64,000 nucleotides of DNA from Schmidtea nova (Eukaryota): positions 283,030,001 to 283,094,000 of the forward strand of contig CM097882.1 of NCBI GenBank assembly GCA_044892505.1, given 5' to 3'. Below the pieces are notes generated by a model. That model was not told the DNA's origin and did no database searches. It saw only the letters and a list, made by a program, of their open reading frames with translations. The position numbers and the translations under genes are program-made. Below, piece by piece: positions 3,001-60,831 of the stretch. Each line of letters opens with the position of its first letter. The first letter of the stretch is position 1.

Positions 3001-6000
3001 CATCTCTGATATCTTGGATGTGTTGTTCAAATGTGCTTGAGTAGATCAGTAGGTCGTCAATGTAAACCATGCATTGTTTTATGCCGTGGGTAACGAAATT
3101 CATACATCTTTGAAATGATGCTGGCGCATTGGTTAGTCCGAATGGCATTTTCCTAAATTGGTACAAGTCTCTTCCGATAGTGAAAGCAGTTTTCTCTTTG
3201 TCTTCCTCCTTCATTTTAATTTGCCAGTATCCGCTTTTCAAATCTAATGATGTAAAGTATGCCGCTCCTTGTAATGTCAATAACATCTCGTTGATGTCTG
3301 GTAATGGGTATGTATCCCTTTTTGTAACTGTATTTAATCTCCGATAATCAATACAAAATCGTTGTGTTCCGTCTTTCTTTTTCACCATTACAACTGGGAA
3401 TTGCCACGGTGAGCAGCTTGGTTCAATTACTTCTGCGTCTAGCATTTTCTGTACCTCTGCTTCTGCTACTGATTTTTGCGCTTCAGCTAACTTGTATGGT
3501 CTTAAAGCAATCGGCGTTTCGTCTGTTAGTGGAATCGTATGTAGTGTGACGTCACATGTCCCTAGATCTAAATCGGATGCCGCGAATATGTCTTTATATT
3601 CTATCAGTAATCTTTCTAGCTGTTTCTTTTGATCCTCATTCAATAGTTGGCTATCAATGTTCCAAGTGGGTTCTTCCTCTTTTACTCCTTCTTTTATTGG
3701 TATTTCGATATCTATCATTGGAGTTAGTTTACCTAATCTTTCATTTTCATAAATTATTTTATCCTCTTCATCGAAATTTACTACATTTATTGGGATTTCT
3801 CCGTTGTCATTCGCACTCACTAATCCCCTTGCCATTGGCAACGACTTTCTCTTTTCAAATCTTTTACTGGGTTCAAAGATCATGTCACCTTCTATTGTAG
3901 GATCTATTTTTACGAAACATATTTTCTCTCTCCGTGCTGGTACGATTATTTGTTTCGAACTTGTTACTTTTGCTTCTATTGCGCATATCTGTCCTGTCCT
4001 ATCCTTCAATCTCATTGTTCCGAGGTCAATAACTATTTCTTTAAATAATGCTGGCATTAAATCTGTGCCTATAATGCATGGTACGCTTAGTGCTGGTATT
4101 ACTGCTACGTACGTTTCGATTTCCGTGTTTTGATGTTTTATCTTTACCCACCATCTTCCGGCAACTTCTACTACTTCTTTACTGCATGCTATTACGTGAA
4201 CGTTGGTTCTCTCGATATCCCGTCTTTGTTCTTGTGGTATCCATTTTATATCTATTGCTGAGATATTTGCTCCTGTATCGATCATCGCTTCTATTTCCCT
4301 TCCGTTAATTTCGATTGTTGTAGTTAATACTGGACCGGTGTTTGATGACATTACTGCAATTGTATGTGAGTCTCCTTGCGGATCTACGCTTCTGCACCGT
4401 CTCGTTCTATAGTCTTCTGGTATCATAGGATATATGTTTGTCATCGGCATCATTTGCATTGTATTTTGTCTCATCCCTGGTGTTGGTTCTTGGTACATGG
4501 TTGGTGGGGGTGCGTAACACTTCCACATTTCCGCTGGATTCTTTTCGACATACTGTGGTACTTGATTTTTAAATACTTGACCTCCTTCGTTATCATCATC
4601 ATCGTCGTCACTGGAATCGTCTTGGGTTCTGTACCCTTTCATTCTTTCCCATAGTCCTTTTCTCTCTTTCTTTAGTTGTTGTCTTGCTTGCTCGTTATTC
4701 ATTATCTTTTTAAATTTTCGTCCCACCTCTTCATCGGTTCCTTTCATTTTTGCCAGTATTTTTAGGAGTCTCTTTATTCGGTGAATATCTTTTGAATGAC
4801 CGTGTAATACCATTGTTTTAGCCAAAAATGGTAAGAATCCTACCACCAATTTCCAATTTACTTTCTTTTCTCTTTTATAGATGTCAAAACAGGCTAACAT
4901 TTGCGTTATTATTACCCGTATTATTTGTATAATTAGTATAACACCAAGTATTCCTGCCATCATTTGTCCAAATATTAAAAATCTTCCCCACATCGCTTTC
5001 ATCATGTTTTCCGTTGCCTTCTTAAAGTGGGCTGGTGACAATAATAATTCGTAATTTGGTCCACTTTGGTAATTTGTTCCTCCTGTTATTGTTACAATAC
5101 TGGATAACACCGCTTCTCGTCTTGCCGGAAATAGTATGTTTTGTCTTGCTGCTTCTAAATCCTTTGCACTATAGAATCCCATATTGCTTACATCTACGTC
5201 TTTAAATTTTCGTCCTTTTGATAGTTGCATTAATTCAAATTCTCTTGGTGCTGGTACCTCTGTTCTTGACGGAAACATAACCCAATTTCCGTCTGGTTTT
5301 TGGTATAGTGGTCCATATGCGTTGCTACAATTGAAAGGGTTTGGTTCGAAACTTACTGGATTTATGATTCTTGTCACTGGTTGTACATATCTTACTTTCC
5401 CTTTATATTCGATTTCTAGTTCGTTAGTACACTGACCTGGTTGTAGTTTTGTCATTGTCGCTACCTTCGCATTTGTCTTTTTACATATGTATACGTACAT
5501 GACCTCTCCGACTACTCTTCCAAAATGACCTTCTCTTAATGGTAATAATGGCATTGCACTATCCGGGTTTGTGATTGCTACTGCTAATTTTGTCTTTAAT
5601 ATTTCCCTATTTAATATGCAATCGTTGTTTATTAAATCGTAATACACTTTTTGTAGTGACGCTTGTCCTCTATGGAATAGAAAATCCATTTTATTGTTCA
5701 TGTAAAGGTGTAATTTAACATCGTTCGTGTGTACTTTGCGTTTCGCACTAGGTACTTCTTGTTTTGATACAAAAATGCCGGGGTAGTTGGTTTCCAACAT
5801 GGCTACTCCGCATTTCAAGGCTGTTTTTCCTTTTACAAACCTCATTCCGATATCTGCATCTGAGGTAATTAGTACCGTTGGTGTATTTCTCATTTTAATT
5901 TGTTTTTCTTGTGTTCGGGTTTCAATCTTTTTCTCTCCCCGTACTGTGTCTTGAAGTATTTTTCCTCTTGCTGCCTCGTCTTCTTCTTCCTCTTGGAAGG

Positions 6001-9000
6001 TTTTCCCTTGTATCTCATCGAATTCTGCTTCCTTTAACAGTTGTAGTTGACATTCCTTCCCTCGTATCTGGTAGGTTAGGGTTGACATACCAGTCTGACA
6101 AGTGTTTGACTCGATTTTGCACATAGGTAGAGTTTTCATTTCTCCCGTCGTTGGATCGAAGAATGCCTCGTACGTTTTTAGTTCCACTGTATACGTATCT
6201 ATTACCACTAGGTTTGTTGCTGCTACTCCGAATATTGGATATGTTGCTCCTTGGCAGTACCCTTCTCCTCCCGTAATAGCTCCTGCTACATAATATGTTT
6301 GTTGCAATATCACTCCCGTTTTTCCTCTTATCTTTACTCTATCTCTAGTCTCTACTTCTCCATGTTTAAATAATTTTTCACAGTCTTCTCCTTGCAGCAT
6401 TACCGATTCTCTTTCCGTTCCTGGCATCACGATTGCTGAATAATGGCGGTGCCCACAATAAAAAGCAAATCTGGTTTTATAAACTTTGCATTCTCTGACC
6501 ATTGTTCTTATCAGTTCAGCTTCCTGATATACGTGGTATAATTGTCTCTTTTTTAATGTTTTTAGCTCCGTTGGGGTTGCGTCTTTACATTGTTCTGTCC
6601 CTCGTAATGAGTATTTTTCACCTAATGCCATTTGATCACAATCGAATACTTCAAATGCTGTTGCTCCGTCAGTACTAATCATCCATATTAATATCATCAT
6701 AATGATAGAACTCAGGTTTAGTGATGATTTCCCGTTTCCTGTTCCCGACTTTTCCTTTTCCAATTCTCCCAATATCTCTTCGAATTTCTTTTTCATATTT
6801 TTGGCTTGGTTTTTCTTTTGGTTCGTTTTTGTGAATGTTTCCCATCCTCCTTTACTGATGATGTACGGTTCTATTTCTTTCTCTATAATTTTGGCTGTAT
6901 TCTTTATATGTCTTTCAAGTGCTGTGGGTTTCAGTCGACCTCTACTCAGTGTCAGCAGATTGTAGATGGTGTATGCCATAGCTATTAAATATTTGTTATC
7001 CGTCTCTGCTCCTTCCGTTACCTTCTTTATCAACATCGTGGTTCCTTGCCAATCTAGGTGGTTTGACCTTGTCTTCTCTTTTATTAATTCTGGTAGGATT
7101 GGTGCGATGGCGCTATGCAGTGATTTCGCCCTTTCGCTTATTTCATTTATTCTCCACCATTTCTTTAATTCTGGATCGATTATTGCCAGTATTTCCATTA
7201 ACATCTTTGATATCCATTCCTCGCCTTGGTATGTTTGTGTTGTTTCTTTTTCTTTCGTTTCGGCTATTTTATTTAGTTTCTTTAAACACAAATCCCATTG
7301 ATCCCGTCTTTTTTCCTCTCTTGATTTTATAACTACATTTGCTGGATCCATCTTGGGTCTACCTCTAGGTCGTTTATCCATTGTCGTGCCCGTTTCTACT
7401 AATCTTGTTTCTCGTCCAGTTTCTTCTGTGACGTCTCTTGGTTCATTGGCTCTTTCTTCTAACCATCTTTCCATTTCTTGTGTGAATTGTACGTTTTCTA
7501 CATTTGCCCTCCTTGCTTCCTCTTCTGCTATTTCATTTACTTCTTCTATGATTATTTCTTGTTCGACTTCATCTTCGGTGTTGGTTACCGGTATTGCTGT
7601 TGGTAATTCTTGAATTCTTTCGAAAATATTATCATCTTTCTCTTTTGTTAGCTCTATTAACTCCTCTAACATATCATCGCTATCTGTAAAAATTTCGTCT
7701 TCATCGTATGGTTCCGGTGGTGTTCTTTCTCTTGTCTCTCTTGGTGTTGTTCTAGTTTGTTCTGAGCTTGTTCCTGGAGTCATTACCGATTTCATTGGGC
7801 TCGGCGTACTCATACTTCCTTTTGGTTTCTTTTCCTCTTTCAATTTCAATGGTTGGCCTGCTATTGCTGCCACTGTCAATGTATTTGCGATATCTAATTG
7901 CGCTGGCGTTATTCCAATTTCCAAGCTGTTATCTAATGATCGTCCTTGGTGTTGTAAATGGAATGGTGGTTCATATCTCAATTTCTTTTTAATGTCTCGA
8001 ACTTTCTCCGCTATCCCTACCCAAAACTCTTCCTTTTCTTGGTTCGGATATACTATTCTTAGGTGTACTTTCTGTGGCGATTCCTGCGAGAATTCTTGGT
8101 TTCTCCATTTTTTAATTACGTGATCCAATTGTTCTGGACACCACTCGTTAACTCTTTTGTATTCGGCGATTGCTTTTGCTACTTTACGCAAGCATGTTAT
8201 GTCTTCTCCATTAACTACGAAAAAATCTGCGAGACCTTTTACTACTTTTCTCTTGCCGTGCGCATTGGTTTTTAATATTTCGACAAATTCCTCTGTTTTT
8301 TGTTTCTCTCTTTCCAACCACATGGTTGCCGTTTCTGGTCCGTCTATATCAGCTGGCATGGCTTTTCTTGTTACCATACAAACCCTTCCCGTTTCCGGTT
8401 TGTGATCGTCTTCTATGCCTATTTCGTATTCCTCTTCGTATTCGCCTGCTTTTGGTTCCCAACATTTTCCTCGTTCGTTCCACCGTTTTTCTACAGGTGT
8501 TCGTAATCGTCTGTTGAGATTGAGTTCTTCTAATACATCTTCCCATTCTGGCCAAATCCGCCAATTTCGATAAATGTCTACTATTTGTTGTAATTTATGC
8601 ACAACTTCTTTTTGTCGTTCCCGTTCTCTTTTCTCATCCTTAGCCGTTTCTCTTGGTGTATCGTCCATTCTGATAACGTGGATGGTTTGGTGATTATCCC
8701 ATATACCAATTTTATATAGCCGTCTTTCATCGTGATCCCATAATACATGTTCGTTGTATTTCATGATTATGTCATCTTCCCATTCTTCTTCTGGTTCTCT
8801 TTGTAATAGTGTCTCGTTGATGACATTTACTAATTCTTTTATGGTACAATCTGCTACCACTTCAATTTCTTTGGTATCCTCATTAGGTAACTCTACTGCA
8901 ATTTTCAGATCTGTTATTTTCCCTTGTCTGAACATTGCTTTTCCCATTTTGGCAATTACTTTTCCGTATGAGATCTGTGACCATCTCGTGTGACTTGTGT

Positions 9001-11701: not shown

Positions 11702-12677
11702 TTCAATTCCGCTGTCTGTAGTTATTTTACTTTCGTTTCCTCTTGTTTCTAGTTCACTGTTAGGTTCGTCACTCGAATTTCGGTCGATCTCAGTTTCTTT
11801 TGCTGATTCGTTATCTGATGCTTTACTATCGTTATCGGTATCGTCACTTTCTGTTTCTTGTTCTACTTCGTCTTCTATTTCTTCTATATAATCGTTGTTG
11901 GTTTTGTCGACTTCTATTTCACTTATTGGGTTTCTCTCGGGTTCTGCTTGATTTTCTTTGTTGCTTGAACTGTTGCTTGTTACTGATAATTTATCGTTTT
12001 CGATAATCGACTTTTGTATTATTATCTGCCTTGCTTTACTTCCTTTTGGGCCTTTCTGATTATTATTCTTGGTAGCTTTATTCTTTTCTGCTGGTTTTAT
12101 TATGACACTCTTTTCTCCTTTTCTCAACGGAATTACTTTTGTATACTCAATTTTCCTGTCTTATCGTGTTCCGATTCTTTTCTTCCTTAGTTGATTGGTT
12201 TGGTTTGATTGATTTATCTAAAATACAAATGTCACTTCAACGATACTCTATTGTTATCGTTGCGCTTTTATTCCCTTTTTACGGGACTTCTCATTACTGG
12301 GTTTCTATTATTTTTCCCCATTCCCAGATTCCCCTTTATTTAAGTCTATTTAAATTATCTATATACTAGTCACAATTATCTATTTAGTCATAACAATTAT
12401 CTATCGGTTATTAAAATACATCAATTATTTTTCCCGCGGTCTCCCAATTTATTTGTCGTTCGAACGCTCTAATTCCCTGAGTCATTTGACTCGATTATTA
12501 TTTTATCATCTCTTTATCTTTCTCTCTGCTAGCCTCTAATTATTAATTCTGCCGGTCTTTCCGGTCAGCTCCTATTTCTCAATTCTACTTGCATGCATTA
12601 TTTTAGGTCGCATAATCAGCTTTACTCGCATTTCTCTATTATCGGTGCGCACTATTCTCATTATCGTCGACGATCAC

Positions 12678-15699: not shown

Positions 15700-16015
15700 G
15701 TTGTCTGAAGATTATAACGATAAATCCACTGGAGGGCCTATCAATAATGTTATTTTATTTAAACAACTATTATTATTATTACACGAGATGTATATTAATG
15801 TTTTTAATTGTTGAGTTCTCTACAAAATTATTTAACTATCTAATCATTGAAGACTCAAAAGGTTTATTGAACTAATTTTATATTAATAAATGAATTTCCT
15901 AATGACTATAACAACTACAATACTAAATCTACATGACAACACTATTAACAAAACGAACATTTCAGAATTCTTTAAAACATTTATTTAATTTAAAAACAGG
16001 CGGCCATTGGTTCAG

Positions 16016-44056: not shown

Positions 44057-44984
44057 GATAATCGTGGCTCAAAAATTTGAGCCTATCTGTGTGCGCGTTA
44101 ATATTGTTTATCGCGTCTGTGTGCGAGTTTCATGTTTTTTTGGTTTACTGCGTCTGTGTGCGCATAATTTTGGCTAAATTATTCGCGTCTGTGTGCGCAA
44201 CCAGATGTATGATATTCGCGTTTTGTGTGTGCAGGTGTTCATTTTTTTCTAGTTTATCGATTTGAATTTCTAGGAATAATTAATTTTAGAGCTTTTGTTT
44301 ATTCGGAGCGTTTTCAACTGAATTTCGAACAGATATTTTGATTTGGGCTTAGAAGATTATATTCAAATATTTTGCGGAGTAATTCTTACCAGTTGACTGG
44401 AATTCTTTTCAAATGACGTAAAACTTGATCTCGTTACAATTCAATCATATCAGCAACGTTCGCACACAAGAAGATTCTAATTCGATGGTTGATATTCAAA
44501 CTGAAGACGATGCTTTGGAAATGAAAGAGTGTATTTCTATAGATTGTGAAAATAATATTATATCACCAAGAGATATCAATCCTTCTTTTCAAATTAAGAA
44601 CGTTAATTGTGATTCAAGTCCAATTCTAAAATCGGGAATTAAAATATCTGACGTATGTCAACAATCCAATGCTTCTTTTGATCATTTCAAGTTAATCAGT
44701 GCTATCTTTGACATTATGACAGACGAAATGAGGTATTNNNNNNNNNNNNNNNNNNNNNNNNNNNNNNNNNNNNNNNNNNNNNNNNNNNNNNNNNNNNNNN
44801 NNNNNNNNNNNNNNNNNNNNNNNNNNNNNNNNNNNNNNNNNNNNNNNNNNNNNNNNNNNNNNNNNNNNNNNNNNNNNNNNNNNNNNNNNNNNNNNNNNNN
44901 NNNNNNNNNNNNCAAATTTTATAAGTTAATGTGTGTGTCACATATCTTTGTTTATCATCTTGCAATTTCTTTGTCAACTTTGAC

Positions 44985-45160: not shown

Positions 45161-45277
45161 TGTAAATTGGAGTAGGAAATTTTTTAAAATAGTGGTAAAA
45201 AAAGTTTTCAATTACGCACACACACCATCTCGGTTATGATACTCATCTGTCAATTACCTTTTGTTTGATATACATAT

Positions 45278-46071
45278 TGTTGGGTATTTTGTTGAAAGTC
45301 GGTTCTAATTTCTGACTCCTGGTGTTCTTTTAACAAATAATTAACCCAACACAATAACCTTTATTTCAATATCACACTTTATCACAATGATTGAACAATA
45401 TAAGAACTGTCTTTTCACACTGAACTTAACTGCTTTCAAGTCACTTGCTGCAAGGGATAAGTCTCCCAACGGAAGATCTCCCTTTCTGGTGCGCAAACAA
45501 ATGAATTAAATTTTACTCTACAACACTACCTTTTCGGACTCTTCTTCTAATTTTAATCTGTTCATTTTGAAATCTTATCTCTTCGACCACTGGCCCCACA
45601 TTGCAATTTGCTTCTCCTTTTATAGTGCTTCCTCCTTAATGCTTGATTGTTCTGTCTCCCAATTTTGACATTTTAATCTACGACTCAAATTAAACTGTCA
45701 TATTGTAATTTAGTAGCTCTCGCCGTTTCCACATCCTTAGAGCAAATTGAACTGTCACTTCGCTTGAGCGGGTTTCTCTCCTCTCTCGGGCTCTCCATTG
45801 GCTCGGGTTTCCCATTGTCTCGGGCTTTCCCTTAGCCAATTAATTCTTAATTAATATTTTAAATTTTTAATTGTTTCTTTCTGGGGACCCCCCATCGATT
45901 TTATTTTTATTTATTTGAATTCGTCTCATAATTTGGCACACACCCATACCAATTTCCCCCATGATATATTAATTTTAAATTTTATTAATTTTTTAATTAA
46001 TGTTTTAATATTTGGTGATTTTTGCAATTTTATTACTTTTAAATTTTGAGTCACTTTGACAAACCCCAACA
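45278..46071 (-). repeat. 3' LTR of element 2 (794 bp)
   Basis: TGTTGGG...CCCAACA termini; identical to 60038-60831 except at 45769 and 45922. Confidence 0.98.
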
Positions 46072-46086
46072 TATCTCCCCCCTTTA
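46072..46086 (-). promoter_or_regulatory. Polypurine tract of element 2
   Basis: Minus strand AAAGGGGGGAGATA immediately before the 3' LTR TG. Confidence 0.9.
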
Positions 46087-47058
46087 ATTAAGATTCGTCC
46101 TCTAATCTATCTTATAATTCAATATATAAATATGAGAGCACCCCGAAAGGCAACTTTTACTGCTACTAATAATAATAATTCTACTAAATAGAACAATAAT
46201 AAAAATAATATTTTGTCCGTCCAAATCTAAATTTACTTTTCCAAAATATTTAACACCTCTTTTTAACGAGAAGGGATGTCAATGACNNNNNNNNNNNNNN
46301 NNNNNNNNNNNNNNNNNNNNNNNNNNNNNNNNNNNNNNNNNNNNNNNNNNNNNNNNNNNNNNNNNNNNNNNNNNNNNNNNNNNNNNNNNNNNNNNNNNNN
46401 NNNNNNNNNNNNNNNNNNNNNNNNNNNNNNNNNNNNNNNNNNNNNNNNNNNNNNNNNNNNNNNNNNNNNNNNNNNNNNNNNNNNNNNNNNNNNNNNNNNN
46501 NNNNNNNNNNNNNNNNNNNNNNNNNNNNNNNNNNNNNNNNNNNNNNNNNNNNNNNNNNNNNNNNNNNNNNNNNNNNNNNNNNNNNNNNNNNNNNNNNNNN
46601 NNNNNNNNNNNNNNNNNNNNNNNNNNNNNNNNNNNNNNNNNNNNNNNNNNNNNNNNNNNNNNNNNNNNNNNNNNNNNNNNNNNNNNNNNNNNNNNNNNNN
46701 NNNNNNNNNNNNNNNNNNNNNNNNNNNTCTTTATCTCGTTTATTTTTTTTGAGCCAGTGAACTGGCAAAAATCTAAATTTAAATTTAACTATGATATTAA
46801 ATCCTGTCATTCACGGAGCAATGGGCTGGCGAATGATGGGTGTTTATTCGTATTATAAAAGAAAATATCGAGACATATCAATCTTCCACTTCAGAATTTA
46901 GAAAATATCGACCTTTGTATAGAACTTTTGAAAAATGTATACTGCATTTATCAGAAGCAATGAAATTCGGCTTAATCTGACTATCTTAAGCTTTATTTTA
47001 AGTAATCTCGGAGGCATCAAAATAAGGGAAAATTCTCACGTAATTTTTTTATTTATTT

Positions 47059-47101
<43 letters not shown>

Positions 47102-47237
47102 TTAATAATAATAATAATAATGTGTTATTTATTGTCAAAAAATTAAATATTCATTGATATATTCATCAACGATGTTAGCAACTGTTGTAATAGATAATAA
47201 GTAGTGTGTTCGAGAAAAAAAAATTTCAATGATAATG

Positions 47238-47276
<39 letters not shown>

Positions 47277-47729
47277 TACCTGATCCTACCTCCTTATCTC
47301 ATGCTCATAATATTACTATAATACTAATAATAAGTGACGGTCGCCTTCTTCAGTCCCTGTCCAGGGATCCAAGCCCCGGTGACTGAAATTGGACACTTTC
47401 ATTTTATTATTATGTCCATATTTAATTTCAATAACTTTGTAACTTTGATAACGTCGGTGTATAATAACAATGCTGATATACTACAATTAATAATACGATT
47501 CTGATACTATTAATAATAATAAACTCTGAATTTTTAAATCATTGATTATAATTCTGACAATTTTTATTTTGATAATAAATTTTTTTTTTGATTTTTTTTT
47601 TTTTTTTTTATATTTAATTAAATTTTGCATTATTTTTATCAATAATGATTTGGGGGTTACCATTAAACAAATAAGAGACAAAATTCGCTAAAGTTTTATT
47701 TATAAATTTATAAATACAAATATAAAATT

Positions 47730-49134
47730 TTAATTGAATTTTAACTCAAAACTTTCTTCACCATGGCAATATTGGACAATTGTTCCTTTTCGCACATACG
47801 TCTTCCCTGCATATGTTATCGAATTTTCTATTTGCAAATTTGAACCCACTTTTCTTTTCCTAGTTTCTTTGGCTGTTGAACCCTTTATAAGTGTTGACTT
47901 TGCTCTTCCACTAATTGAGCTTGTAAATATTGCCAAACTTTCTTCGATGGGCTCTAGACTAGTTTCCTCTGCAAAATTCAATTGTATTTCAATTTCCATT
48001 ATTGATGGTTCTTCTATTGTCAGATCCACTGTTGTTGTCATTTCCGATGTGCTCTGTGTTGCTCGTAAATTTCTGTATTCCTCCAGTGAATATATTTTTG
48101 AGGGCTGTTTCCTGGGAATCATCACATCATCGATCCATTGACTCTCCACTTTCAAATAAACTTTTCTAATGCTTTTCACATCTTCCAACGCAGTGTGGAT
48201 GCTTGTTTGTGTTTTTCCCGCATAATTCTTCAGTGATTGTTTTTAACTTAAACCATTCTCCTTTTCGGCTTACCTTCATTGATTTTAACACTTGCGCTGC
48301 TGCTAAATCTCGAATGCCATATACTTTATTGATCCAAATTCCAAGATTATTCAATTCCGCTTGGAGATCATGACCAATCAGTATTTTCCCTATGGTCAAC
48401 CTCTGAATATCTTTCATCTCCTGATATTGATCTGCCTGATTTCTACTGGCCACTTCCGTTATTCCGTGGATTTTGGAATTAAAATGTCTTATTTTCCCTC
48501 TTGGTGTAATGTATGTATTTTTTATAATTTTTCCATAATAATTTAGGATTGCGATTGACAACGGAATCATTTTTCCGCTTTCGGAGCTTCCATATTCCGC
48601 ATCGATAAACAAAATTCGATTACGGATTTCTTCTATATCCATCTCCTTTCTAACAAATGAGAGCTTCCTTTTTAACATTTCATCTGAAATTGCCATCAAA
48701 TTCTCATCATTAGCTTCTGTCGGATGTGTACTTGGAATTTCTCCAGCTTCATTTTCAATTCTGGTTTCGATAACCATTATGGCATCCTCGTTTGCGGCTC
48801 GCAGCAAATTGAACATTATTTCCCTCTGCAGTTTCCACGTAGTAAATTTTTCCAATTCCTTCCGAATCTGATTCCTTTCGTTCAACATTTCTACCGTGCC
48901 TTTTATTATGTGGAGGTAATATTGTTCTTTTCTTGCTAACTGCATTTCCTCTAATAACTTCATTTTGTTGTTTCTGTGCACTTTTAGAATTTGTATTTTC
49001 ATTCTTCTGTCATCACTTCGAAGGTAGTTGGGAATTTGCAGATTGTTGTTGATCTGGAATTTTTGTCCGGCATGGCTTCTGCTGAGTCTGGCGTAACTGT
49101 CGTATACCGATCTTGGCCATTGTAATTGTTCCAT
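47730..49134 (-). pseudogene. REX4/ISG20-like DEDDh 3'-5' exonuclease, frameshifted near 48190-48215
   Basis: ILFIDAEYG (ExoI), KIHGIT, ILIGHDLQAEL (ExoII), IRDLA, FKLKTITEEL, then in the adjacent frame IHTALEDVKSIRKVY (ExoIII HxxxxD). Confidence 0.85.
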
Positions 49135-49551
49135 TTGCTAAAATTATTGAATTTTTAATTTACTTTAATTTTAGAATTTGAAACTATGATCGAGGTTGGG
49201 CACCCAAAGGATATCGTCTCAATCAATAGTTGTATAAATAAAAATATTTAATTAATTACCTATTTATTTGAATTTGAAAAATTCGGAATCTCAGAAATTT
49301 TGAAATTCAAAATTTTGAGTTTTTGAAATTTTAAATCTAACGGTTTAACACGTATCCTATATACCCTCTTAAATTTCCTTCCCCTTTTTAATTTCTTCTT
49401 TTTATCCAATCAAATTCATTTGCCAAGCGATCCTTGAAAGCAGTTTTACATCAAAAATAAAAAGTGTTTCATAAAATGTAATGCTATCAATAAATAAATA
49501 ATAAATTCGACACTACTGTTACTCATATTGCATGCAGAAATCATTATCTTA

Positions 49552-50720
49552 CTACACAAATGTCTCATCGTAGACAAACCAAGGTCTCGAAGGTTCGGAT
49601 TGATTTGCCGGAGATTGAAATGATTTTTCGAATATGCACAATACGATAGCAATGATAACTGTTAGAATTACTGCTAAAGAAATGATGATTATAATCAATG
49701 TTATGCACATTTTTTCATTATTCATTTTTTGGAACAATTTAGTTTGATTTTTTACAATTGATTTTTTGATAGGAATGTTATTAAGAAATGTTGTGGTTTG
49801 ATATTGGTGTGAATCGTTTGGGTATGCTTCATCATATGAGACTTGAATGAGTTTATTTTCGACAAACGTTATCTGCCATAGATTTGAATATAGAGTACGA
49901 CGATAATATTTGATTTTTACGAGAACTAATTTCGACATTGGGTTTGCTTGCGATTGTTGAAAAATTATTGTTTGAGATTGTCTTTTGCTGTCTAGAATTG
50001 CTTGCATTTTCCCATAACAATATATAACCGCCTTTTGATTCGGGTCTGTTTGCCTGGTGACTTTTATTGCTTGATGGTAGATGTGAAATTGAACTCTTCG
50101 TTTCATTAATTAATGTTATCGTTTGTTGACTGGTGTGAACTTTAACCCATTGATTCTCTGTATTGGTGCCATTTTCATATAAAGTCTTCTCATAATAGTG
50201 AATCACAACATTATAAGTCTGAAATAACTTTAACTTAATATAATTTATGAAGGGTTTTCTACTATTCAATGTGTCTATTGCATAATTTTGGAAAATCGTT
50301 TTTACTTGTTGGGATTCTTGGGGTTCCCAATATACATTAATACTATTTATCGAAGGTTCAATTGATACCAAATTGTTCCGATTTTTTGTCCAAATTTCTA
50401 GGCGTATTATATTACGTATTTCCGTAGTATTCTTTTTAGGATCTAGCTGTGCTACCAGCCAGGGATATTTGTAATTCATTGTCAGATGACGTGCAACATG
50501 ATAATTATTATTATAATTCAATTTCACCGGGGGTTCAAAATAATTTAATAAATTATTTATTTCTACTTCCTCATCTTTTTCACAGGAATAAATCCACACA
50601 ATCTGAGTACATGTTGCAAATGTATTGATTCTCTCTAACAATGGGATTCGTTTTGTTGCAACCGTTGGAAGAAATCGTACTGCATTCGCACACAAAACAT
50701 TCAACATCATTACTGTAGAA
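49552..50720 (-). pseudogene. Second type-I membrane glycoprotein downstream of integrase (frameshifted)
   Basis: Signal-like KILLISTVMMLNVLCANA in ORF 49853-50977, a beta-rich ectodomain with NxS/T sites, and TM MCITLIIIIISLAVILTVIIAIVLCIF plus a short tail in ORF 49552-50106. Confidence 0.6.
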
Positions 50721-50967
50721 ATTAATAAAATTTTATTAATGTAGCTTGATGGGGCTGGATTTCTATTATACCTCTGTTTGATTGCTTCATCTTCCTTCCG
50801 TTTTGATCGTAATGGGTATTGTTTTAACTCTTCCACCGGCACCTTTTTACAGCGGTTTACATGAACAACTATTGTTCCAGCTTTTTTATTATTCTGTGGA
50901 CGCAACTTTAGATTAGTCTCTGTAGCATCACATACTACATATGGTCCTTTAAAAGGTCTTTGCAGTT

Positions 50968-53640
50968 TCACTGACAATCCTTTAGTCGGCTCTGGTTTAT
51001 TTCATACACTAAATCTCCAATTTTAATATCATGCGCATGTGCGCGTTTATCATAGCACTCTTTATAAGCTTCTTGATGGTGTTTTATTTTAAGACCTGCT
51101 TGACCCCATACTGACTGCAATCTCTCTTGCATAATTACTTTATAATCGGATACGTCCATATATTGGGAAATCGGTGGCGGAAATTTCAAATCAATTGGCA
51201 TATTATTACGTCGTAAATACATAAGGTAGAAAGGTGTTTCACCGGTACTTTCATTAACTGCATTCCGATATGCAAATAGGCATGGTTTAATATACAAATC
51301 CCAATCTTTTTGCTTTCTATTTACATAAGAAGATATCATATTTATTAGTGTTCCATTGAATCTTTCCACTAAACCGTCTGTTTGTGGATGATAAGGTGAT
51401 GTACTTATTTTCATTATTCCGAATAACTCCGTGACTGATTTGAATAAATCACTTTGAAAATTTGTTCTTTGATCTGTAAGTAATTTTTTTGGTGCTCCAT
51501 ATCGGAATATTATGTTTTCAACAAATATTTTTGCTACTGTCTCTGCTTTTTGATTTGGCATAGGATAAGCTTCTGGCCATTTTGTTAAATAGTCACAAAA
51601 GACAATAATGTATTTATTTCCATTTGTCGTTTCTGGTAGTGGACCCACGATATCCATTGCCGTCATTTCCATCGGCGCTTGTGGTACTGGCATTGGCTTT
51701 AAAGGAACTTTAATTTTCTTTCCTGTATTTCTCCTGGTTAGACATATTTCACACGTATGACACCACTGTTTGACCTCTTGCTCCATCGTGTCCCAATAAT
51801 ATTTTTGCTTTAATCTCGATAATGTTTTACGTGCTGATAAATGTCCTCCCAATGCTCCATCATGATACAACAACAGTAATGATCTTCGATGTTTTGTTGG
51901 AACGATAATTAATAAATTTTCATTTTTCACACATTTTAGCAAACCGTCATGGACAACATATTTATGTTTTTCCTCAACAACATGTTTCCAGTCACTCTCT
52001 TTTTTGATGGTGACAGCATGTTGACGTAGCCGATTTAATTCAATATCACTTTCTTGATCATTTTGTAATTCTTTTAGATTATTTACAGTTTTAATTGCCA
52101 TAAATATTGTATTTTCATAATTTATTTCATTTCTACCATCCACATTTTCGTCATTAATTCTCGATAACGCATCGGCATTGGCATTTGACCTTCCTGTACG
52201 GTACTTTATATCGAAATCATATTCTTGCAGCGCAATTGACCATCTGATTAATTTGCTGGCTGAATCTCTGTGCCTCATGAGCCATTGCAGTGGATTATGG
52301 TCTGTAAAAACAATAAACTTTCTACCGATTAGGTATTGTCTGAAAGTAGTTATTCCATATACCAACGCTAAAGTCTCTTTTTCGATTGTAGAATAATTCT
52401 TTTCATGTGGCTTTAATGTTCGACTAGCATAAGCAATTACATGATTTTTTTCACCTTCCACTTGTTGACCCAACACTGCTCCTAATGCGAAATTACTGGC
52501 ATCTGTCATTAATATGAACTGTCTCTTAAAGTCTGGACATCTCAAAATCGGTTGTTTTAATAAACTTTCTTTCAGAATATCAAATGCATTTTGTTGAGCC
52601 GTCATCCATTTAAATTTAGTTTGCTTTTTAAGTAGTATATTCAAAGGTTGTGCTACATGCGAAAACTTTTTAATAAATTTTCTATAATAACCTGCTAAAC
52701 CAAGAAATTGTCGAACTTGATCAACATCTTTTGGAATTGGATAATTTTTGATTTTCTCTACATTTTCGGGATTTGGCTGTAATCCACGTCTTGAAATAAT
52801 ATGACCCACATAAACAACTTCATACTTTCCCCATTCGCATTTTGATGGTTTTATTTTTAGATTTGCTTTTAATAATCTTTTGAATACTGTTTCAACATCT
52901 TTTAAATGCTCTTGAAAACTGCCTGAAAATATTATTATGTCATCAATATAGACTAATGCATGTGGAATGTCTCGCAATACGAAATTCATGCCTCTCTGAA
53001 AAGTAGCAGGTGCTCCAGTTAATCCAAATGGTAAAACGTTAAACTCGTATAGGTCTTTACCATCTGAAAATGCAGTTTTTCTCTTGTCATCCTCTTTTAC
53101 TTTAAATTGGTTGTATCCTTTATTTAAATCAATTACTGTGAAAAATTGTACCTCGCCCATTTGATCAAACATTTCCTGTGGAACTGGAATAGGATATGTA
53201 TCTTTTCTCGTGACCTGATTCAACTTTCGATAATCTACACAAAATCGCAAATCTCCATCTTTCTTTTTAACAACCACTATCGATGATGACAATGGTGATG
53301 AACTGTCTCGTATAATATTGAATTCCTTCATTGCTTTAATTTGTCGATCACTTTCTTCTTGATAAACGTAAGGAATTCTATATGGTCTCAATTTGATAGG
53401 AGTTTCATCCAGCAAAGGTATCTCATGCTCAATTATTTGAGTAAGTCCCAAATCGTATTCATGTTTAGCAAACACACTTTTGTATTTCATCAATAGTGCT
53501 GTAAATTCTTGCTTTTGCTCAGCTGTTAAATCATTGCTTGTAACTTGAGGTTGCTTATAAATTTTGATATTTCTCGGTAGCTTTTGAGCTTCTTCAGCTT
53601 CGATTTTTGTCAGTTTCCCCACTTTTGTTTTGGGTTGCAT
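50968..53640 (-). CDS. RT-RNase H-integrase portion of Pol (element 2)
   Basis: FCVDYRKLN, LPFGLTGAPATFQR, YIDD, TDASNFALGAVL, TDHNPL, YHDGALGGH..CEIC, MDIVGPLP, PYHPQTDGLVERFN. Confidence 0.97.
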   Translation of the reverse strand: MQPKTKVGKLTKIEAEEAQKLPRNIKIYKQPQVTSNDLTAEQKQEFTALLMKYKSVFAKHEYDLGLTQIIEHEIPLLDETPIKLRPYRIPYVYQEESDRQIKAMKEFNIIRDSSSPLSSSIVVVKKKDGDLRFCVDYRKLNQVTRKDTYPIPVPQEMFDQMGEVQFFTVIDLNKGYNQFKVKEDDKRKTAFSDGKDLYEFNVLPFGLTGAPATFQRGMNFVLRDIPHALVYIDDIIIFSGSFQEHLKDVETVFKRLLKANLKIKPSKCEWGKYEVVYVGHIISRRGLQPNPENVEKIKNYPIPKDVDQVRQFLGLAGYYRKFIKKFSHVAQPLNILLKKQTKFKWMTAQQNAFDILKESLLKQPILRCPDFKRQFILMTDASNFALGAVLGQQVEGEKNHVIAYASRTLKPHEKNYSTIEKETLALVYGITTFRQYLIGRKFIVFTDHNPLQWLMRHRDSASKLIRWSIALQEYDFDIKYRTGRSNANADALSRINDENVDGRNEINYENTIFMAIKTVNNLKELQNDQESDIELNRLRQHAVTIKKESDWKHVVEEKHKYVVHDGLLKCVKNENLLIIVPTKHRRSLLLLYHDGALGGHLSARKTLSRLKQKYYWDTMEQEVKQWCHTCEICLTRRNTGKKIKVPLKPMPVPQAPMEMTAMDIVGPLPETTNGNKYIIVFCDYLTKWPEAYPMPNQKAETVAKIFVENIIFRYGAPKKLLTDQRTNFQSDLFKSVTELFGIMKISTSPYHPQTDGLVERFNGTLINMISSYVNRKQKDWDLYIKPCLFAYRNAVNESTGETPFYLMYLRRNNMPIDLKFPPPISQYMDVSDYKVIMQERLQSVWGQAGLKIKHHQEAYKECYDKRAHAHDIKIGDLVYEINQSRLKDCQ

Positions 53641-54696
53641 CTAAATAGTTTTTGTGCCACAATTCGCTATTCGCACTGGCACTAATTTATTTTTGACTCT
53701 CACTATCTCATCACACATAGGTAAATCATATTTTTCTATTAATTTTAGATTTGGTTCGAATATGCATTCTTCACCTGGTGCATTCGTTACATCTGCATAA
53801 TATATTATTTCGCTTTTTGATGGTATATCAACTAATTGATTTATGAAAACTTCTCCTACCTCCTCAATAACCTCACCAGTTTGACCTTTTATTATTTTCC
53901 CGGTATTTAAATCAAGTGAAATTCCTTTTAACTGTTCCATAACGTCCATACCGATAAGGCATTTTACGGGGCTTCTTCTCATTACTGTTACCCAGTGAAT
54001 AATCTCCTGATCTCCAATCTTCAATTTTGCGTTAACTTTTCCTATAATATTCAGCAGATTATGCGACATTGATTTGATACGCTTATTTGTCGGCCTCATC
54101 TCTTTTCTTTCTCGACTCGTTAATAATTCCTCTGACACTATCGTATGACTTGAACCTGAATCTAGTAAAGCTTGCACTCTTCGACAATTAAACAAAACAT
54201 CGATCCGAGGTTGTTTTCCTTCCACCTTCATTGTCATTAATGCATAACTGCACGGTAATCCAAGCATATTTTTGCGTTCGATTTCCGCACTTGTTGGTTC
54301 AATTTTCTCTGATGTAATTCGAATCTCATCATCTAATGGTTTCATCTCTTTTAATTTTTCGTTTGGATATACAGGTGCTGTTGGTACAAATGTTGGAGTA
54401 TACCATCGTGTTAACGTATCAATTCCGCCTAATTTTGGCATTGGTTCGAGCAAGAACCTAGTTTCTGGTTCTGTTTTATTTTTCAATATCCCTCTTCGCA
54501 AATATTTCAACTCGGTATTACCTCCGTCATTGTTATTGTTCTGACTATTGATCTCTTCCGATTGACATAATGATTCCTCACTTTTTTGATCCTTTCTCAA
54601 TTGTGCTCTTACATTTGCCATTTCTTTGTATTGATGATTTGTAATGAAAAATCTGGCCAAAAATGGATACAACCGATTATTATTTTCCATGACCAT
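53641..54696 (-). CDS. Env cytoplasmic tail/linker plus aspartic protease (element 2)
   Basis: VQALLDSGSSHTIV...CLIGMD; same frame as the RT ORF, separated from it by a single TAG. Confidence 0.92.
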   Translation of the reverse strand: MVMENNNRLYPFLARFFITNHQYKEMANVRAQLRKDQKSEESLCQSEEINSQNNNNDGGNTELKYLRRGILKNKTEPETRFLLEPMPKLGGIDTLTRWYTPTFVPTAPVYPNEKLKEMKPLDDEIRITSEKIEPTSAEIERKNMLGLPCSYALMTMKVEGKQPRIDVLFNCRRVQALLDSGSSHTIVSEELLTSRERKEMRPTNKRIKSMSHNLLNIIGKVNAKLKIGDQEIIHWVTVMRRSPVKCLIGMDVMEQLKGISLDLNTGKIIKGQTGEVIEEVGEVFINQLVDIPSKSEIIYYADVTNAPGEECIFEPNLKLIEKYDLPMCDEIVRVKNKLVPVRIANCGTKTI

Positions 54697-57600
54697 CCGG
54701 AAATAGCGTATATTCTATGTGCTGACAACACTTGCGATACTATCACTTTCATTGTTACTGCAATTACGTAGATTCCAATTAAACCGGCACAAGCTTGCCC
54801 TAAGAACATAAATTTACCCCAAATCTTTTCCATTGTTTTATATGTGGCTCTTTTGAAATGATCGGGTGTTAACAAATATTCGTAGTTAACTTTTCCTTCT
54901 CCATTTGGTAATATTGTATCAACCATTTCTGAAATTACCCTTTCCTTTTTTGATGGAAATAGCAAGTTTCTTTGAGCCTCTTCGATGTCTTCACTCGCAT
55001 ACAACCCCATTTGTGCCATTTTATTCAATGACGTAAAATTTACCAAATATTCTAAATTTGTTAGCTCTAATTTATCAGGAGTTTTAACTCCTCGGTAGTC
55101 TGGTAACGCTACCCATGAATCCGGCGTTAAGCGATATAACGGAGCAAGTAATCAATTACATTGTAATATTTTTGGTTTAGCCTGTACTTCGAGCAATATT
55201 CGAGTGATTGGTTCCATAAATCGTAACTTGCCACCAACACTTACGGGTAATTCATTCGTACATTGTTCATATTTCGCAATCTTTACAGCAACTTCCTTAC
55301 ATTTGAAGCTGTACAAAGCTTCTCCAAAAATTCTCGTGAAGACCCCACTTTCCGATATCAACATAGGTGCTACCAAATTTGGGTTTGTGACTGCCATAGC
55401 CATCCGATTTCGAAGAATCTCTTTATTTAATTTACAGTCATTTAGGATCATTTCTCTATATACATTCTCCATGACGTTCTGACTAAAATGGAATAAATAA
55501 TCAATTTTATTATTAAAATAGTGCGTTAATTTAATGTCGCCTGTATAAACTCTCGTTTTTGCGTCTTCAACTATTCCCTTTGATACATAGACACCTTTAT
55601 AATTTGTTGCATACACCACTCTTCCACATTTATTAGTAGGTTCCTTTTTTATGAAACGCATGCGGTCCGTTGGCGATGTTGACATCAACACTGCACTTGT
55701 TTGTCTGGTCATTATCGGAATCGATTTAATTGACTCTTTTGGTTTATAATTCAGAGCAAAACTATCAGGTCTTTCTTTGAATTGTTCTCCGATTATTTCT
55801 TTAAAATTCATTGTCTTTAAATGAGCCAAATTACATTTATTTACTTTAACATCATAAACTAAAATTGATTCTCCCGTTTGACAATTTGTCTGTTTCATAT
55901 TGCAAAATGGATGTGTTTGCAATTTACCTGTATCATCATCAAATGCTCCTTCGAACTCTCTCAATTCTGTAAGGTACTCTTCAAGTACTACCGTTTTATC
56001 CACAATTTTACCATCCATTTTATACGGTTCACCTTCGCAATCACCATTTGCTTTCATGGTTCCTTTCACAACTACTGTCTCTCTCGTTCTATGATTCAGT
56101 TTGGCTTTTAATCGAATTTCCGAACTTATTTTTAATTCTCCGGTTTGAAATGCTGTTAAACCATTTTCTGGAAAAATTTCAACGGGTCTAGGTATTGCTC
56201 TCACTTTTATCAATGACGTGTGACTCCATTTTCCACAATAAAACACAAATGTTGTATGTTTGACAATACACTCTCTAACTTTAGTTCGTCGTAAATCTGA
56301 CTCTTGATACACATGGTATTTTACATCATTTTCGATTTGTAATTTACTCGGATAGGCATCTGGGCATTCTGACATATCTACCACTGAGTAAATCTTTCCA
56401 ATTTCGGTTTGGGAGCAATCATATGCAACCAATGACGTCGCTTGTGCAATAACTGTACACAAGATAATCATTGTAAACATCAACCATGGGAATATTCCGA
56501 TTCTCTTTGTTTTCGAACTGACTTTATCACATAATTCTCTTGTCTTTTCCTCATTTTCTTTTATATCTAGTGGTGGACACAATATCTTCCAGCCACCCTT
56601 TTCTTTTACCCAATTTATTAAATATTCATTAAGCATCCTGGCTGCCGTATCTATTAAATCATCCAACTCTTTCGACTTTACAAACGCATACGTTCCTATC
56701 TCTAAAATCGCATACGTCAAACTCGTCAATACTACCTCCCTATTCACTTCCTTTTGGATCAACTCTTCAAAAACCTTTCTCTCACAGAAATTATTTCCTC
56801 TACCAAATCGTTGTACTACTTCAGGAAGCCTATTTTTCAATTCTTTGACTATCTCTTCCACATCTTCCTCCACTTGTAATTCTATCTTAAACATTGGATA
56901 TATCGTTTTAAGCAGATGCTTTAATATCTGTTTTGTTTCATCTACTTCTTTTTCAACTCTTACCAAATTTCTCTTTATTTCATACAAAGTTCTAGGTTTC
57001 CCATTTTTATTGCTAACTTCATTAAGCACATCTGATTTTTGTCTTTCCGCTTCCTGTACCTGATCTCTCACTATTGGATTCTTCTGAAAACTGCCATCTA
57101 TAATAGTCTCATTTTCTTCAGTTTCTTCGATTTCCTCTTCCCCTTCGTCTGATTCTGAATTATCTAATTCTTCCATTCTTCCTACTTGTACTTCCTTCAC
57201 CGCTACTATTCGATTTATTACATATCCATTACTTCCCTCCATACTTAAATATCCCTCTTCATTTACTTCTAACGGTAAACACCCGCAATCATATAGATAC
57301 TCGTCATCATCTAGCAGTTCCCCTTTATACCTCAACGTTATGATTCCATCCGTTCCTAACATTTTCGAAGCTCTTCTACGTACCCTTTTTACCTTTGTGC
57401 ACCAATGCTCTTCAGTATATTCCGTCTTTCCACGCTCTTCATAATCTATTGCTATAACTAAATGATTCTGCTCGACTCTGTCTTTTCTAAGCTCTTTACC
57501 CATTTTCCTCAATAAGCTTTTAAGCTTTTTACTGTATCTAGTTCTCCCAAATAAATATGGTCGTATTAAATTCGCGATTTCTACTTTATCTTTAGATTCA

Positions 57601-58520
57601 AGCTCACATTCCTCGATCATTTTTAATTTGTCATTTATTTCATTTTCATCTCCACTATATAATGCATCATTTAACTCTTTTGTAATTTCAACTGGATCTC
57701 TTTTAATTATCACACAATCTTTTTGTAACGTAATTATTTGCAACTCGTTTTCATTACCTGGAATAAACCCACAATCTATTAAATATTCGTTATCTTCTAA
57801 TTTTCGATTTTTAAATCTCAACTCTCTCATTAATCCATCTCGTTTGTCTGTTAATTTATTTTTTAAATCTCTCACACAATCATTGGCGTCACAACGTATA
57901 CAATTTACACTTTTATCACTCTCATCAACAACATCAATAAAAATAAAATCTAACCATTCCTTTTCTCGAAACATTTTCCCAAATATTTTCATCATATCTT
58001 TTATTTCGTCTCTATCCTTTGAATTCACTTCACAATAACTCGCACATACATTAATTACACTTTTTAATTTCCTCATATTCAATGACATTTGACTCAATTC
58101 TTTTAGCGAACTCATTATTTTGGATGAATCTTCTCTTCTCGCTTCTATTAATTTTTCAATTCTTGTTATAATCATTGTCGATAATTCAATTCCTAGATCA
58201 TCTTTCACATCTTTTCTCCTCGATTCTTCTTCCGTCTTTTCTTGTGGATCATACATCATATGGTTATCCATTTCCTCGTCGGATTCAAATTTAGACATTA
58301 GCCGATCCAAACGTCGACCTATTTCTTTAACTTCGCTTTGGATTCTTTCTTTGAAATCATCGGGCTGAACAAATGCTACATTGTCATTCAGAGATTTATC
58401 ATTTTGAAATCGGATTGTCTTCTTTAGTATTGGTCTTTGGAACTTGTCGTTATTTCTGGGACATGATCTGGCGATATGTCCATACCCTCTACATGAGTGG
58501 CATTGAATTTGACCTTGCAA
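54609..58520 (-). pseudogene. CCHC - Ubl x2 - Bcl-2-like - signal peptide - gB/chuvirus-like Env - TM (element 2), with an in-frame TGA at 55152
   Basis: ORFs 55152-58520 and 54609-55046 share a frame. Ubl at about 57730-57955 and 57260-57465; BH1/BH2 at about 56580-56790; signal IGIFPWLMFTMIILCTVIAQA; env motifs co-linear with element 1; TM FMFLGQACAGLIGIYVIAVTM. Confidence 0.85.
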
Positions 58521-58586
58521 ATTAACCTTGTCTCTTTGTGGTGACGGTGATGTTGACGGAGATCTTGATTTAGCATAACAATTTCT

Positions 58587-59632
58587 CTACACATGTCCTT
58601 TCTTTCCGCAATTGTAGCAGTGCAGAGTATCATTGTTTCGTTGTTCCACATTGCTAAATTTATTAAAACTTTTATCACCATTACCTTTCATCCACTCTGG
58701 CCACATTCGCCTTGGGCTCTGCGTACTACCTTTGAACCAACATTGACTACTATTATGACCCATCTTTTGGCAATTATTACATTGGATTGGAGTTGGGCTT
58801 CTTTGGGATCTGTTTTTGAGCCAACATTGATTCACATGATGTCCCATTCTTTGACAATGGCTGCATTGTATTGGCATTTCTTTCTCCTCCATTGGAGCAT
58901 TAGTTGTTTGACTTGATTGGAATTTGGCTTTGAATTTTGGCGAAGGACTGCTATATTGTTGAAATCTGTTGTTCTTCTCAGGAGTTACTGATCGTTCTTG
59001 TTTTTGTTCCATCATTGCAAACGATTCTGAATTTGATTGTGTACTTTTCAAATTAAGCTCAATTTTCATGGCCTTTTGATTAATTCATCGAAGTTGTTGA
59101 AATCGACATAGCATAAAGCCTTTTTGATTTCCTTTTTAACTCCCGATAAAAATTGATCTTGCAACAGTTCCCTTACTTGCTTTGCCACTTCTGGTTGATC
59201 GGGTTTGGTTTCGAAAGCTTTTTCTGCAAGAGTCGTTAGATGATAAGCAAATTCACTTACAGATTCATCAGATTTTTGCATTCGATTGTAAAATTTTTGG
59301 CGCATAATCCTTTTGATATCTCCTCCGATCAATTTAGCGGCTAATGAATCTTTAAGTCTCATCCAGTCATTTCCGATTGTCCTTTTGTCAATTTGTTGCC
59401 ATACTTCTCTGGCTGCTCCCTTTAAATACAAGGGCAATCTTTGTATCATCGTGGCTTGGCTCCATCCATACGCATTGGCATACATATAATAGTCTGCCAT
59501 GAAATCGACAAATTCAACTGGATCTCCTCCATATTGGTTAACTGGTAGCTTTTGACAACTAGCGAGATCATTGCCATTTCCTGCATGACTTGTCGACATC
59601 GGCGCTTCATCATTACTATTTGAATTGCTCAT
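58587..59632 (-). pseudogene. Gag of element 2 (frameshift near 59066; TAG inside the third zinc knuckle)
   Basis: YGGDPVEFVDF..RLPLYLKGAAREVW, then CSHCQRMGHHVNQC, CNNCQKMGHNSSQC, CYNCGKKGHV*RNC. Confidence 0.9.
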
Positions 59633-60016
59633 ATTATTCTGATATTTCGTTTGGCTTCTTAATTGACAAAATGGTCGAGTTGGTAACGTTTTCTCTCGTC
59701 TAAATTTTAAAATATCAATTATTAAATTTACCCTTTATTAGTCTTTATTTTCTCAAACTTCAATTTTCACTTTTTCACGATTCAACTTTTATTCACACAA
59801 AAATTTCCAATTTATTTCTAAGAATTTACTTTTCAATATAATTAATTTATTTTCACAATTCTTTTTCAACTTTTTCAATATTTTCAATTTATTTTCAATG
59901 CTTTCAGTTTCAAATTTCTCTCAATATCTACTCTATTCACTAACGATATCACCGCTTTTCACACGTTTTATTGTAATTTATTCAATTAATTCTCCACCAA
60001 TTCTTCACCGACTTTG

Positions 60017-60034
60017 ATCACGTCGGGCTCACCA
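60017..60034 (-). promoter_or_regulatory. Primer-binding site, tRNA-Trp-like (element 2)
   Basis: Minus strand TGGTGAGCCCGACGTGAT matches the tRNA-Trp PBS TGGTGACCCCGACGTGAT at 17/18; 3 nt from the LTR end. Confidence 0.88.
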
Positions 60035-60037
60035 AAA

Positions 60038-60831
60038 TGTTGGGTATTTTGTTGAAAGTCGGTTCTAATTTCTGACTCCTGGTGTTCTTTTAACAAATAA
60101 TTAACCCAACACAATAACCTTTATTTCAATATCACACTTTATCACAATGATTGAACAATATAAGAACTGTCTTTTCACACTGAACTTAACTGCTTTCAAG
60201 TCACTTGCTGCAAGGGATAAGTCTCCCAACGGAAGATCTCCCTTTCTGGTGCGCAAACAAATGAATTAAATTTTACTCTACAACACTACCTTTTCGGACT
60301 CTTCTTCTAATTTTAATCTGTTCATTTTGAAATCTTATCTCTTCGACCACTGGCCCCACATTGCAATTTGCTTCTCCTTTTATAGTGCTTCCTCCTTAAT
60401 GCTTGATTGTTCTGTCTCCCAATTTTGACATTTTAATCTACGACTCAAATTAAACTGTCATATTGTAATTTAGTAGCTCTCGCCGTTTCCACATCCTTAG
60501 AGCAAATTGAACTGTCACTTCGCTTGAGTGGGTTTCTCTCCTCTCTCGGGCTCTCCATTGGCTCGGGTTTCCCATTGTCTCGGGCTTTCCCTTAGCCAAT
60601 TAATTCTTAATTAATATTTTAAATTTTTAATTGTTTCTTTCTGGGGACCCCCCATCGATTTTATTTTTATTTATTTGAATTTGTCTCATAATTTGGCACA
60701 CACCCATACCAATTTCCCCCATGATATATTAATTTTAAATTTTATTAATTTTTTAATTAATGTTTTAATATTTGGTGATTTTTGCAATTTTATTACTTTT
60801 AAATTTTGAGTCACTTTGACAAACCCCAACA
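60038..60831 (-). repeat. 5' LTR of element 2 (794 bp)
   Basis: Direct repeat of 45278-46071, adjacent to the PBS. Confidence 0.98.

Follow-up and report, generated by a model that had tools for sequence, protein, structure and literature searches.

Two retroelements with different ends lie in one 64,000-nt stretch of the Schmidtea nova genome (GCA_044892505.1, contig CM097882.1, positions 283,030,001 to 283,094,000; hereafter the window), and the question raised by this locus is whether they belong to one lineage. A preliminary description, made from the letters alone, had proposed that the second of them (element 2, positions 45278-60831) repeats the gag, ubiquitin-like (Ubl), Bcl-2, env and pol layout of the first (element 1, at the left edge), and that both represent an old clade of endogenous enveloped-virus-like Metaviridae with variable cargo after the integrase (IN). 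Our results indicate that element 2 inserted recently and has since been broken, that it belongs to a Ty3/gypsy family of 15-17 kb with many copies, that it shares a clade with element 1 (a 28-kb Burro-type element), and that it likely falls in the published flatworm GAG-ENV-POL errantivirus clade. Taken as a whole (recent broken copy, shared clade, single-frame architecture and the membrane route proposed below), this is very probably the best explanation of the locus. Note that planarians are already known from the literature to have this layout and this lineage, so that element 2 is a further example and the main claim adds little.

Element 2 and its copies in the genome

By its long terminal repeat (LTR) ends, target duplication, primer site, polypurine tract and pol order, which is protease (PR), reverse transcriptase (RT), RNase H (RH) and IN with a gypsy-type RT, element 2 is a Ty3/gypsy (Metaviridae) element. 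Its features, all on the minus strand except the target duplication, are as follows.

45278-60831 (-): element 2, 15.6 kb, LTR-bounded
45274..45277 and 60832-60835 (no strand): target-site duplication ATAT, 4 bp
60038..60831 (-): 5' LTR, 794 bp, TG...CA, 2 substitutions relative to the 3' LTR
60017..60034 (-): primer-binding site, 18-nt complement of genomic tRNA-Trp(CCA)
58455..59734 (-): Gag, capsid and four CCHC zinc knuckles (Retrotrans_gag E 1.6e-7; zf-CCHC)
57717..57962 (-): ubiquitin-like domain 1, Pfam ubiquitin E 0.03 (below cut-off), beta-grasp in the model
57237..57482 (-): second ubiquitin-like domain, preceded by a short helical bundle (model and fold search)
56547..56909 (-): Bcl-2-like domain, Pfam Bcl-2 E 5e-4 (below cut-off), W-x5-GGW motif
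56445..56501 (-): hydrophobic segment ahead of env, predicted as an internal signal anchor (hydropathy scan, mapped from a sister copy without breaks)
54612..56429 (-): envelope protein, Monjiviricetes/glycoprotein B (gB) type with a transmembrane segment (PF24664 E 2e-52 and 1e-25)
53929..54204 (-): aspartic protease (Pfam)
50971..53640 (-): RT, RNase H and integrase (Pfam), beginning after the stop at 53643-53641
49555..50740 (-): post-integrase tail, with a beta-rich ectodomain between a predicted signal and a transmembrane segment, then a short tail that ends ETFV
47733..49137 (-): accessory open reading frame (ORF), 467-469 aa where a copy is unbroken, carrying a DEDDh exonuclease domain that is ISG20/ISG20L2-like
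46072..46087 (-): polypurine tract, directly preceding the 3' LTR
45278..46071 (-): 3' LTR, 794 bp, TG...CA

The polyprotein of element 2 is interrupted by three stops, found where the preliminary description had placed them (58589-58587 in gag, 55154-55152 in env and 53643-53641 ahead of RT), and by four frameshifts (near 59075 in gag, 54660 in env, 51000, and 50095 in the tail), while a fifth frameshift near 48200 lies in the separate accessory ORF. The same description held that the separate ORFs rejoin into one polyprotein once repaired, and the family bears this out. Indeed, the seven break sites are open in 19, 19, 19, 18, 19, 19 and 16 of 19 other copies, a site being counted as open if any frame spans the matching stretch (at the last site one copy is broken and two have no match), and a genome search with the env family profile placed 28 of its 68 scored matches in stop-free frames of 3,390-3,401 aa. 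A single frame from gag to tail is found in 5 of the 19 copies, a figure that is not a rate because some copies (seven) were chosen partly for their long frames. In the unbroken relatives, one frame of ~3,400 aa holds Gag, two Ubl domains, the Bcl-2-like domain, env, PR, RT, RH, IN and the tail, and a separate exonuclease ORF accompanies it. In addition, a genome DNA search with the env region, in which 40 of 1,152 candidates were scored, gave matches that were all 90-100% alike (22 of them at 98% or more), and the DNA search, the profile search and the fetched copies together showed several near-identical copies of element 2. Since its break sites are open in other copies, whose breaks lie elsewhere, the breaks of element 2 are private decay, and at the DNA level env is in frame with gag and pol as part of the family's polyprotein, not a separate ORF.

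Shared ancestry with element 1 and the parts of the polyprotein

The following features of element 1 lie in the window.

2..12160 (-): element 1 polyprotein frame, 5,140 aa stop to stop, running past the window's left edge
14563-14580 (-): primer site, 18-nt complement of genomic tRNA-Pro
14587-17830 (-): 5' LTR, 3,244 bp, 100% identical to its partner LTR

Element 1 is ~28 kb long, has a target duplication of 4 bp and carries a TRAF/MATH ORF apart from the polyprotein. The two elements are distinct in the ways that had been noticed: their LTRs (794 against 3,244 bp) show no mutual similarity in a self-BLAST of the window, their primer tRNAs differ (tRNA-Trp against tRNA-Pro), and their sole DNA match is a 334-bp stretch of the integrase at 71%. 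Protein identity between them is 24% in gag, 36% in env, 26% in PR, 51% in RT, 50% in RH and 58% in IN, and BLAST finds nothing over the Ubl/Bcl-2 region or the post-integrase tail. Both nevertheless share the Pfam domain order gag, zinc knuckles, PF24664 env, PR, RT, RH, IN, and all five env motifs quoted in the preliminary description occur in both, as it had claimed.

A RT identity of 51% is about what element 2 shows with unrelated gypsy elements, and a tree was therefore needed. In the RT-RH tree, both elements fall in one 15-row clade of 128 rows (Shimodaira-Hasegawa-like approximate likelihood ratio test, SH-aLRT, 98; FastTree 0.99), 119 of these rows being the closest public matches to element 2, with one row (P0022) dropped. 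The IN tree, from which 49 of 129 rows were dropped for a short or absent integrase, likewise groups them in one 13-row clade among 80 rows (SH-aLRT 99), and a joint RT-RH-IN tree with 14 randomly drawn outside rows unites them with a support of 100/99. The midpoint or other gypsy elements served as the root of all trees, none of which places the two elements in unrelated clades. The RT of element 2 also shares its clade with a family of this genome that has a 4,993-aa frame; the named Burro sequences are not among the rows of these trees. Further families in the genome have frames of 3,232, 3,401, 4,993 and 5,115-5,147 aa and, where tested, the same env.

When the element-2 family is compared with its sister family, to which it is 78% alike, the ratio of nonsynonymous to synonymous substitution rates (dN/dS) is 0.02-0.29 where measurable, with 0.03 for env (85% identity at near-saturated synonymous sites), 0.13 for the Bcl-2-like domain and 0.13 for the tail ectodomain, so that env is as constrained as pol and all tested parts of the polyprotein are under purifying selection. 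Because synonymous sites are near saturation while dN/dS remains this low, the clade is old and its cargo is maintained by selection.

In the region ahead of env, the structural model contains two beta-grasp domains with Foldseek matches to ISG15, SUMO and ubiquitin. Ubl domain 2 matches domain 1 of a sister family at 28% (E 6e-4), and the Ubl match between elements 1 and 2 is weak (E 2.5e-4 to 1.6e-3 for three segments and 0.065-0.14 for two others); the hhalign comparison of element 2's own two Ubl domains was set aside, the same rows being present in both alignments. The Bcl-2-like domain has profile matches to Bax and Bcl-xL (E about 0.002) and a W-x5-GGW motif that we take to be of BH2 type. 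These scores are weak for Bcl-2, and suggest that Ubl and Bcl-2-like domains stand before env in element 2 as they do in Burro-type elements. From their family membership, one may guess that both modules would dampen host cell death or ubiquitin signalling.

Behind the integrase, the tails of elements 1 and 2 have no common sequence but a common pattern of signal-like segment, ectodomain, transmembrane segment and short tail. Four hydrophobic segments recur at corresponding positions in two families of the element-2 type and in two public relatives; in element 1, three of these reach the cut-off. A hydrophobic segment, likely in the membrane, follows IN in 14 of 17 clade members and in none of 62 other gypsy pol proteins, a contrast that is partly one of tail length because many controls have short tails; of the three members without it, two end at most 21 residues past the integrase, whereas P0014, the third, stops within a tail that is homologous. 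The final residue is valine in 14 of 18 frames and the ending is S/T-x-V (presumably a PDZ-binding-like pattern) in 7 of 18, several of these rows being near-copies. No fold was assigned to the ectodomain because its model has a mean predicted local distance difference test score (pLDDT) of 41, Foldseek gave no match at E 0.001 or better and the best VIA-align score (Z 6.0) lay within background; the weak top matches of VIA-align, to class II fusogens, were for that last reason not taken as a lead. Regarding the clade as a whole, the claim of an old lineage of Metaviridae is thus upheld by the trees and by selection, and 'enveloped-virus-like' may, to judge from sequence, be an apt label for it, whereas a purely variable cargo after the integrase does not agree with the conserved membrane topology.

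Several observations on tails stand beside these. The tail of element 1 (L011:6741-9998, minus strand) holds ankyrins, a signal-like segment, repeats resembling fibronectin-type modules by eye, and a transmembrane segment, and one relative (L125-L126) carries this membrane module twice. Four public relatives (P0002, P0125, P0127 and P0138) have two to four aspartic-protease-like domains, some of them past the integrase.

The accessory ORF of element 2 best matches ISG20L2 and ISG20 in a PDB search (E 2e-11), and a Pfam search did not detect an exonuclease in it. An ISG20-like ORF is present in all three related families; in each, ExoI D-x-E and ExoIII H-x4-D are kept and the position of the ExoII Asp is a Glu. 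The ORF is predicted to encode an RNA-trimming enzyme, which, to judge from its family, might act against host defence.

We propose the following membrane route. Reverse transcription of element 2 would be primed by tRNA-Trp, as its primer complement implies, and the polyprotein would thread the endoplasmic reticulum membrane four times. Gag-Ubl-Bcl-2 would stay cytosolic and tethered via the env signal anchor, env would be luminal and pol cytosolic, and a second type I membrane protein would follow the integrase with its ectodomain in the lumen. Cleavage by the host's signal peptidase and by the protease of the element would separate the parts of the polyprotein, and capsid, enzymes and fusogen would thereby share one membrane for budding.

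Alternative readings of the breaks, the modules and env

It could be argued that readthrough or frameshift signals make the breaks a programmed feature, or that env is a separate gene in the family, given that the LTRs differ at 2 of 794 sites only and yet the frame carries 7 breaks. We rejected both possibilities, since every break site is open in at least 16 of the 19 other copies and full-length frames surround 28 of 68 env matches; they are largely refuted at the DNA level and we consider them highly improbable, although a spliced env message may exist besides. Note that two sequencing runs of unidentified kind (as contigs) had no joint common to both and are uninformative on splicing. A more serious alternative concerns the modules: env and pol would share an ancestry, and the Ubl and Bcl-2-like modules would have been gained separately or swapped by recombination, so that the full layout would not be ancestral. 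In agreement with this, element 2 groups (98/97) with env-in-frame relatives that have no Bcl-2 match, to the exclusion of element 1, and two of these relatives (P0002 and P0003) are complete from gag to env; forcing the Bcl-2 bearers together gives a p-value of 0.045 in the approximately unbiased (AU) test. The missing BLAST similarity over the Ubl/Bcl-2 region and the weak Ubl matches point the same way. However, the Bcl-2-like parts of elements 1 and 2 match each other by profile (and by profile only; hhalign probability 88.7, E 2.5e-6) at the same position ahead of the env signal, six public proteins match both Bcl-2 profiles, the tree fits a single gain of Bcl-2 with later losses equally well, the AU value is borderline, and some rows without a match may be shortened at the N-terminus. 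We therefore regard a separate origin of the modules as unlikely, though worth bearing in mind. Because some closer pol relatives of element 2 lack a Bcl-2 match, Bcl-2 does not define the clade; to judge from the present sequences, the in-frame env marks it and Bcl-2 was lost or exchanged within it. Of the gag-Ubl-Bcl-2-env-pol layout proposed as the architecture of the lineage, the in-frame env thus stands and the patchy Bcl-2 does not.

Other readings differ in what env does. Env and cargo may be carried passively, in elements whose spread, like that of ordinary retrotransposons, is confined to the cell, with env serving internal membranes or the host. A single frame would yield Gag, env and pol 1:1, which is not how classic errantiviruses produce them, and this would suit a purely intracellular spread. 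The constraint on env, equal to that on pol between sister families, and the env signal and membrane segments kept across the clade speak against such passive carriage, which we judge rather doubtful. At the other extreme, the clade could be a two-glycoprotein enveloped retrovirus-like lineage spreading between the cells of the animal, with a gB-type fusogen between gag and pol and a second, fast-evolving attachment protein fused behind the integrase. Signal peptidase would release both from one membrane-threaded polyprotein, the env signal anchor would keep Gag at the membrane, and host RNA defence would be countered by an ISG20-like nuclease; we offer this picture tentatively, as a possibility of rather low probability. 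As regards our preferred reading of element 2 as a recent, broken copy of a single-frame family within the shared clade, some points weigh against it. The Bcl-2 and Ubl domains do not reach the Pfam cut-off, and in the model the pLDDT of the Bcl-2 part is below 50; env has no sequence match to solved structures (none at E < 0.3); the topology comes from a simple hydropathy scan; and the published Smed and Burro pol sequences (see below) are not among the rows of the trees, the link to them being env likeness by eye and layout. Moreover, element 2's own subfamily may be dead, because none of the 12 copies at least 96% alike to it has an unbroken frame, each having its own breaks.

Relation to published elements and other features of the window

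In PMC6431247, planarian Burro elements are termed probable proviruses, with Gag, a Ubi/SUMO-like domain, BCL2 and env in frame between gag and pol. Burro1-4 and GYPSM1 have the same single polyprotein (Gag, Ubi/SUMO-like, BCL2-like and env, then PR-RT-RH-IN), and element 1 fits them closely. It measures 28 kb, has ankyrins and LTRs of 3.2 kb, and combines a frame of 5,140 aa with a TRAF/MATH ORF of its own, in agreement with the 5,140-aa ORF1 and separate MATH ORF reported for the Dugesia tigrina element. In contrast, element 2 is about half this size (15.6 kb, 0.8-kb LTRs, ~3,400 aa), with a tRNA-Trp primer and an exonuclease ORF, and Pfam finds no ankyrin, MATH, BIR or RING match in it. It is classed as a Burro relative, not as Burro proper, because it lacks the giant size (~30 kb, multi-kb LTRs) and the ankyrin, MATH or BIR cargo, both of which element 1 has. 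The Burro section of PMC6431247 mentions neither a post-integrase membrane protein nor an exonuclease.

PMC13524379 describes six Schmidtea GAG-ENV-POL elements (Smed_errantivirus_1 to _6) that share RT clade E and IN clade Y and carry an HSV/gB-type env (HSV standing for herpes simplex virus) with cysteine type C1a. Like element 2, they are multi-copy and have their gB-type env ahead of pol. Counted by eye, the env of element 2 agrees with that of Smed_errantivirus_1 at 120 of the first 156 aligned residues (~77%), and the env of element 1 with that of Smed_5 at 70 of 157. The first of these agreements by itself points to a planarian as the likely host. The main text of that paper, as available, is without the terms 'Bcl', 'Burro', 'in-frame', 'single ORF' and 'fibronectin', draws no link to cargo or Burro, and lists no LTR or primer tRNA for these elements. 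As for the exonuclease, PMC5408684 reports bdelloid rotifer LTR retrotransposons with a DEDDy exonuclease as ORF3, that is, a DEDD exonuclease as a separate ORF after pol, as in element 2; the best matches of element 2 are instead the DEDDh enzymes ISG20L2 and ISG20, with a Glu at the ExoII Asp and env inside the polyprotein. In these elements, neither the membrane protein behind the integrase nor the ISG20-like ORF was found described in the literature searched, which did not cover the primary Burro papers, where both may be described.

The giant Burro elements and the 15-17-kb GAG-ENV-POL errantiviruses appear to form a single radiation, of which one genome contains several young families. 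The conserved post-integrase membrane segment provides a tangible starting point for the questions of particle production by these elements and of their choice of cells.

Further ORFs were observed in element 1. Left of the window lies its complete TRAF-like accessory ORF (L011:4785-6191, minus strand), with RING-like, TRAF zinc finger and MATH parts; behind it come two coiled-coil ORFs (368 and 193 aa). Between its 5' LTR and gag is a RING-finger ORF (13798-14259, minus strand; zf-C3HC4_3 E 2e-11), compatible with the B-IAP cargo of Burro1, on which PMC13465017 cites a study from 2026. Two ORFs of 198 and 176 aa without a Pfam match lie within the LTR itself (15118-16546, minus strand).

Regarding the primer tRNAs, very large tandem arrays lie at L136 (C3, about 128.0 Mb) and L140 (C1, about 459.6 Mb), with 1,984 matches to the tRNA-Trp end at ~282-bp spacing and 899 to tRNA-Pro at ~308-bp spacing. 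Elsewhere in the window, fragments of a protein-primed family B DNA polymerase (34385-35149, minus strand, DNA_pol_B_2 E 4e-8; 26492-26854, plus strand, by eye) are likely decayed Polinton-type elements. A 290-aa open frame without a Pfam match occupies 30879-31748 (minus strand), and an aspartic-protease-bearing fragment, BEL/Pao-like by eye, lies just left of element 2 (42569-44058, plus strand). Tc1/pogo-type transposase fragments are present at 38370-39586 and 19792-20616 (both minus strand) and at 25474-25878 (plus strand).

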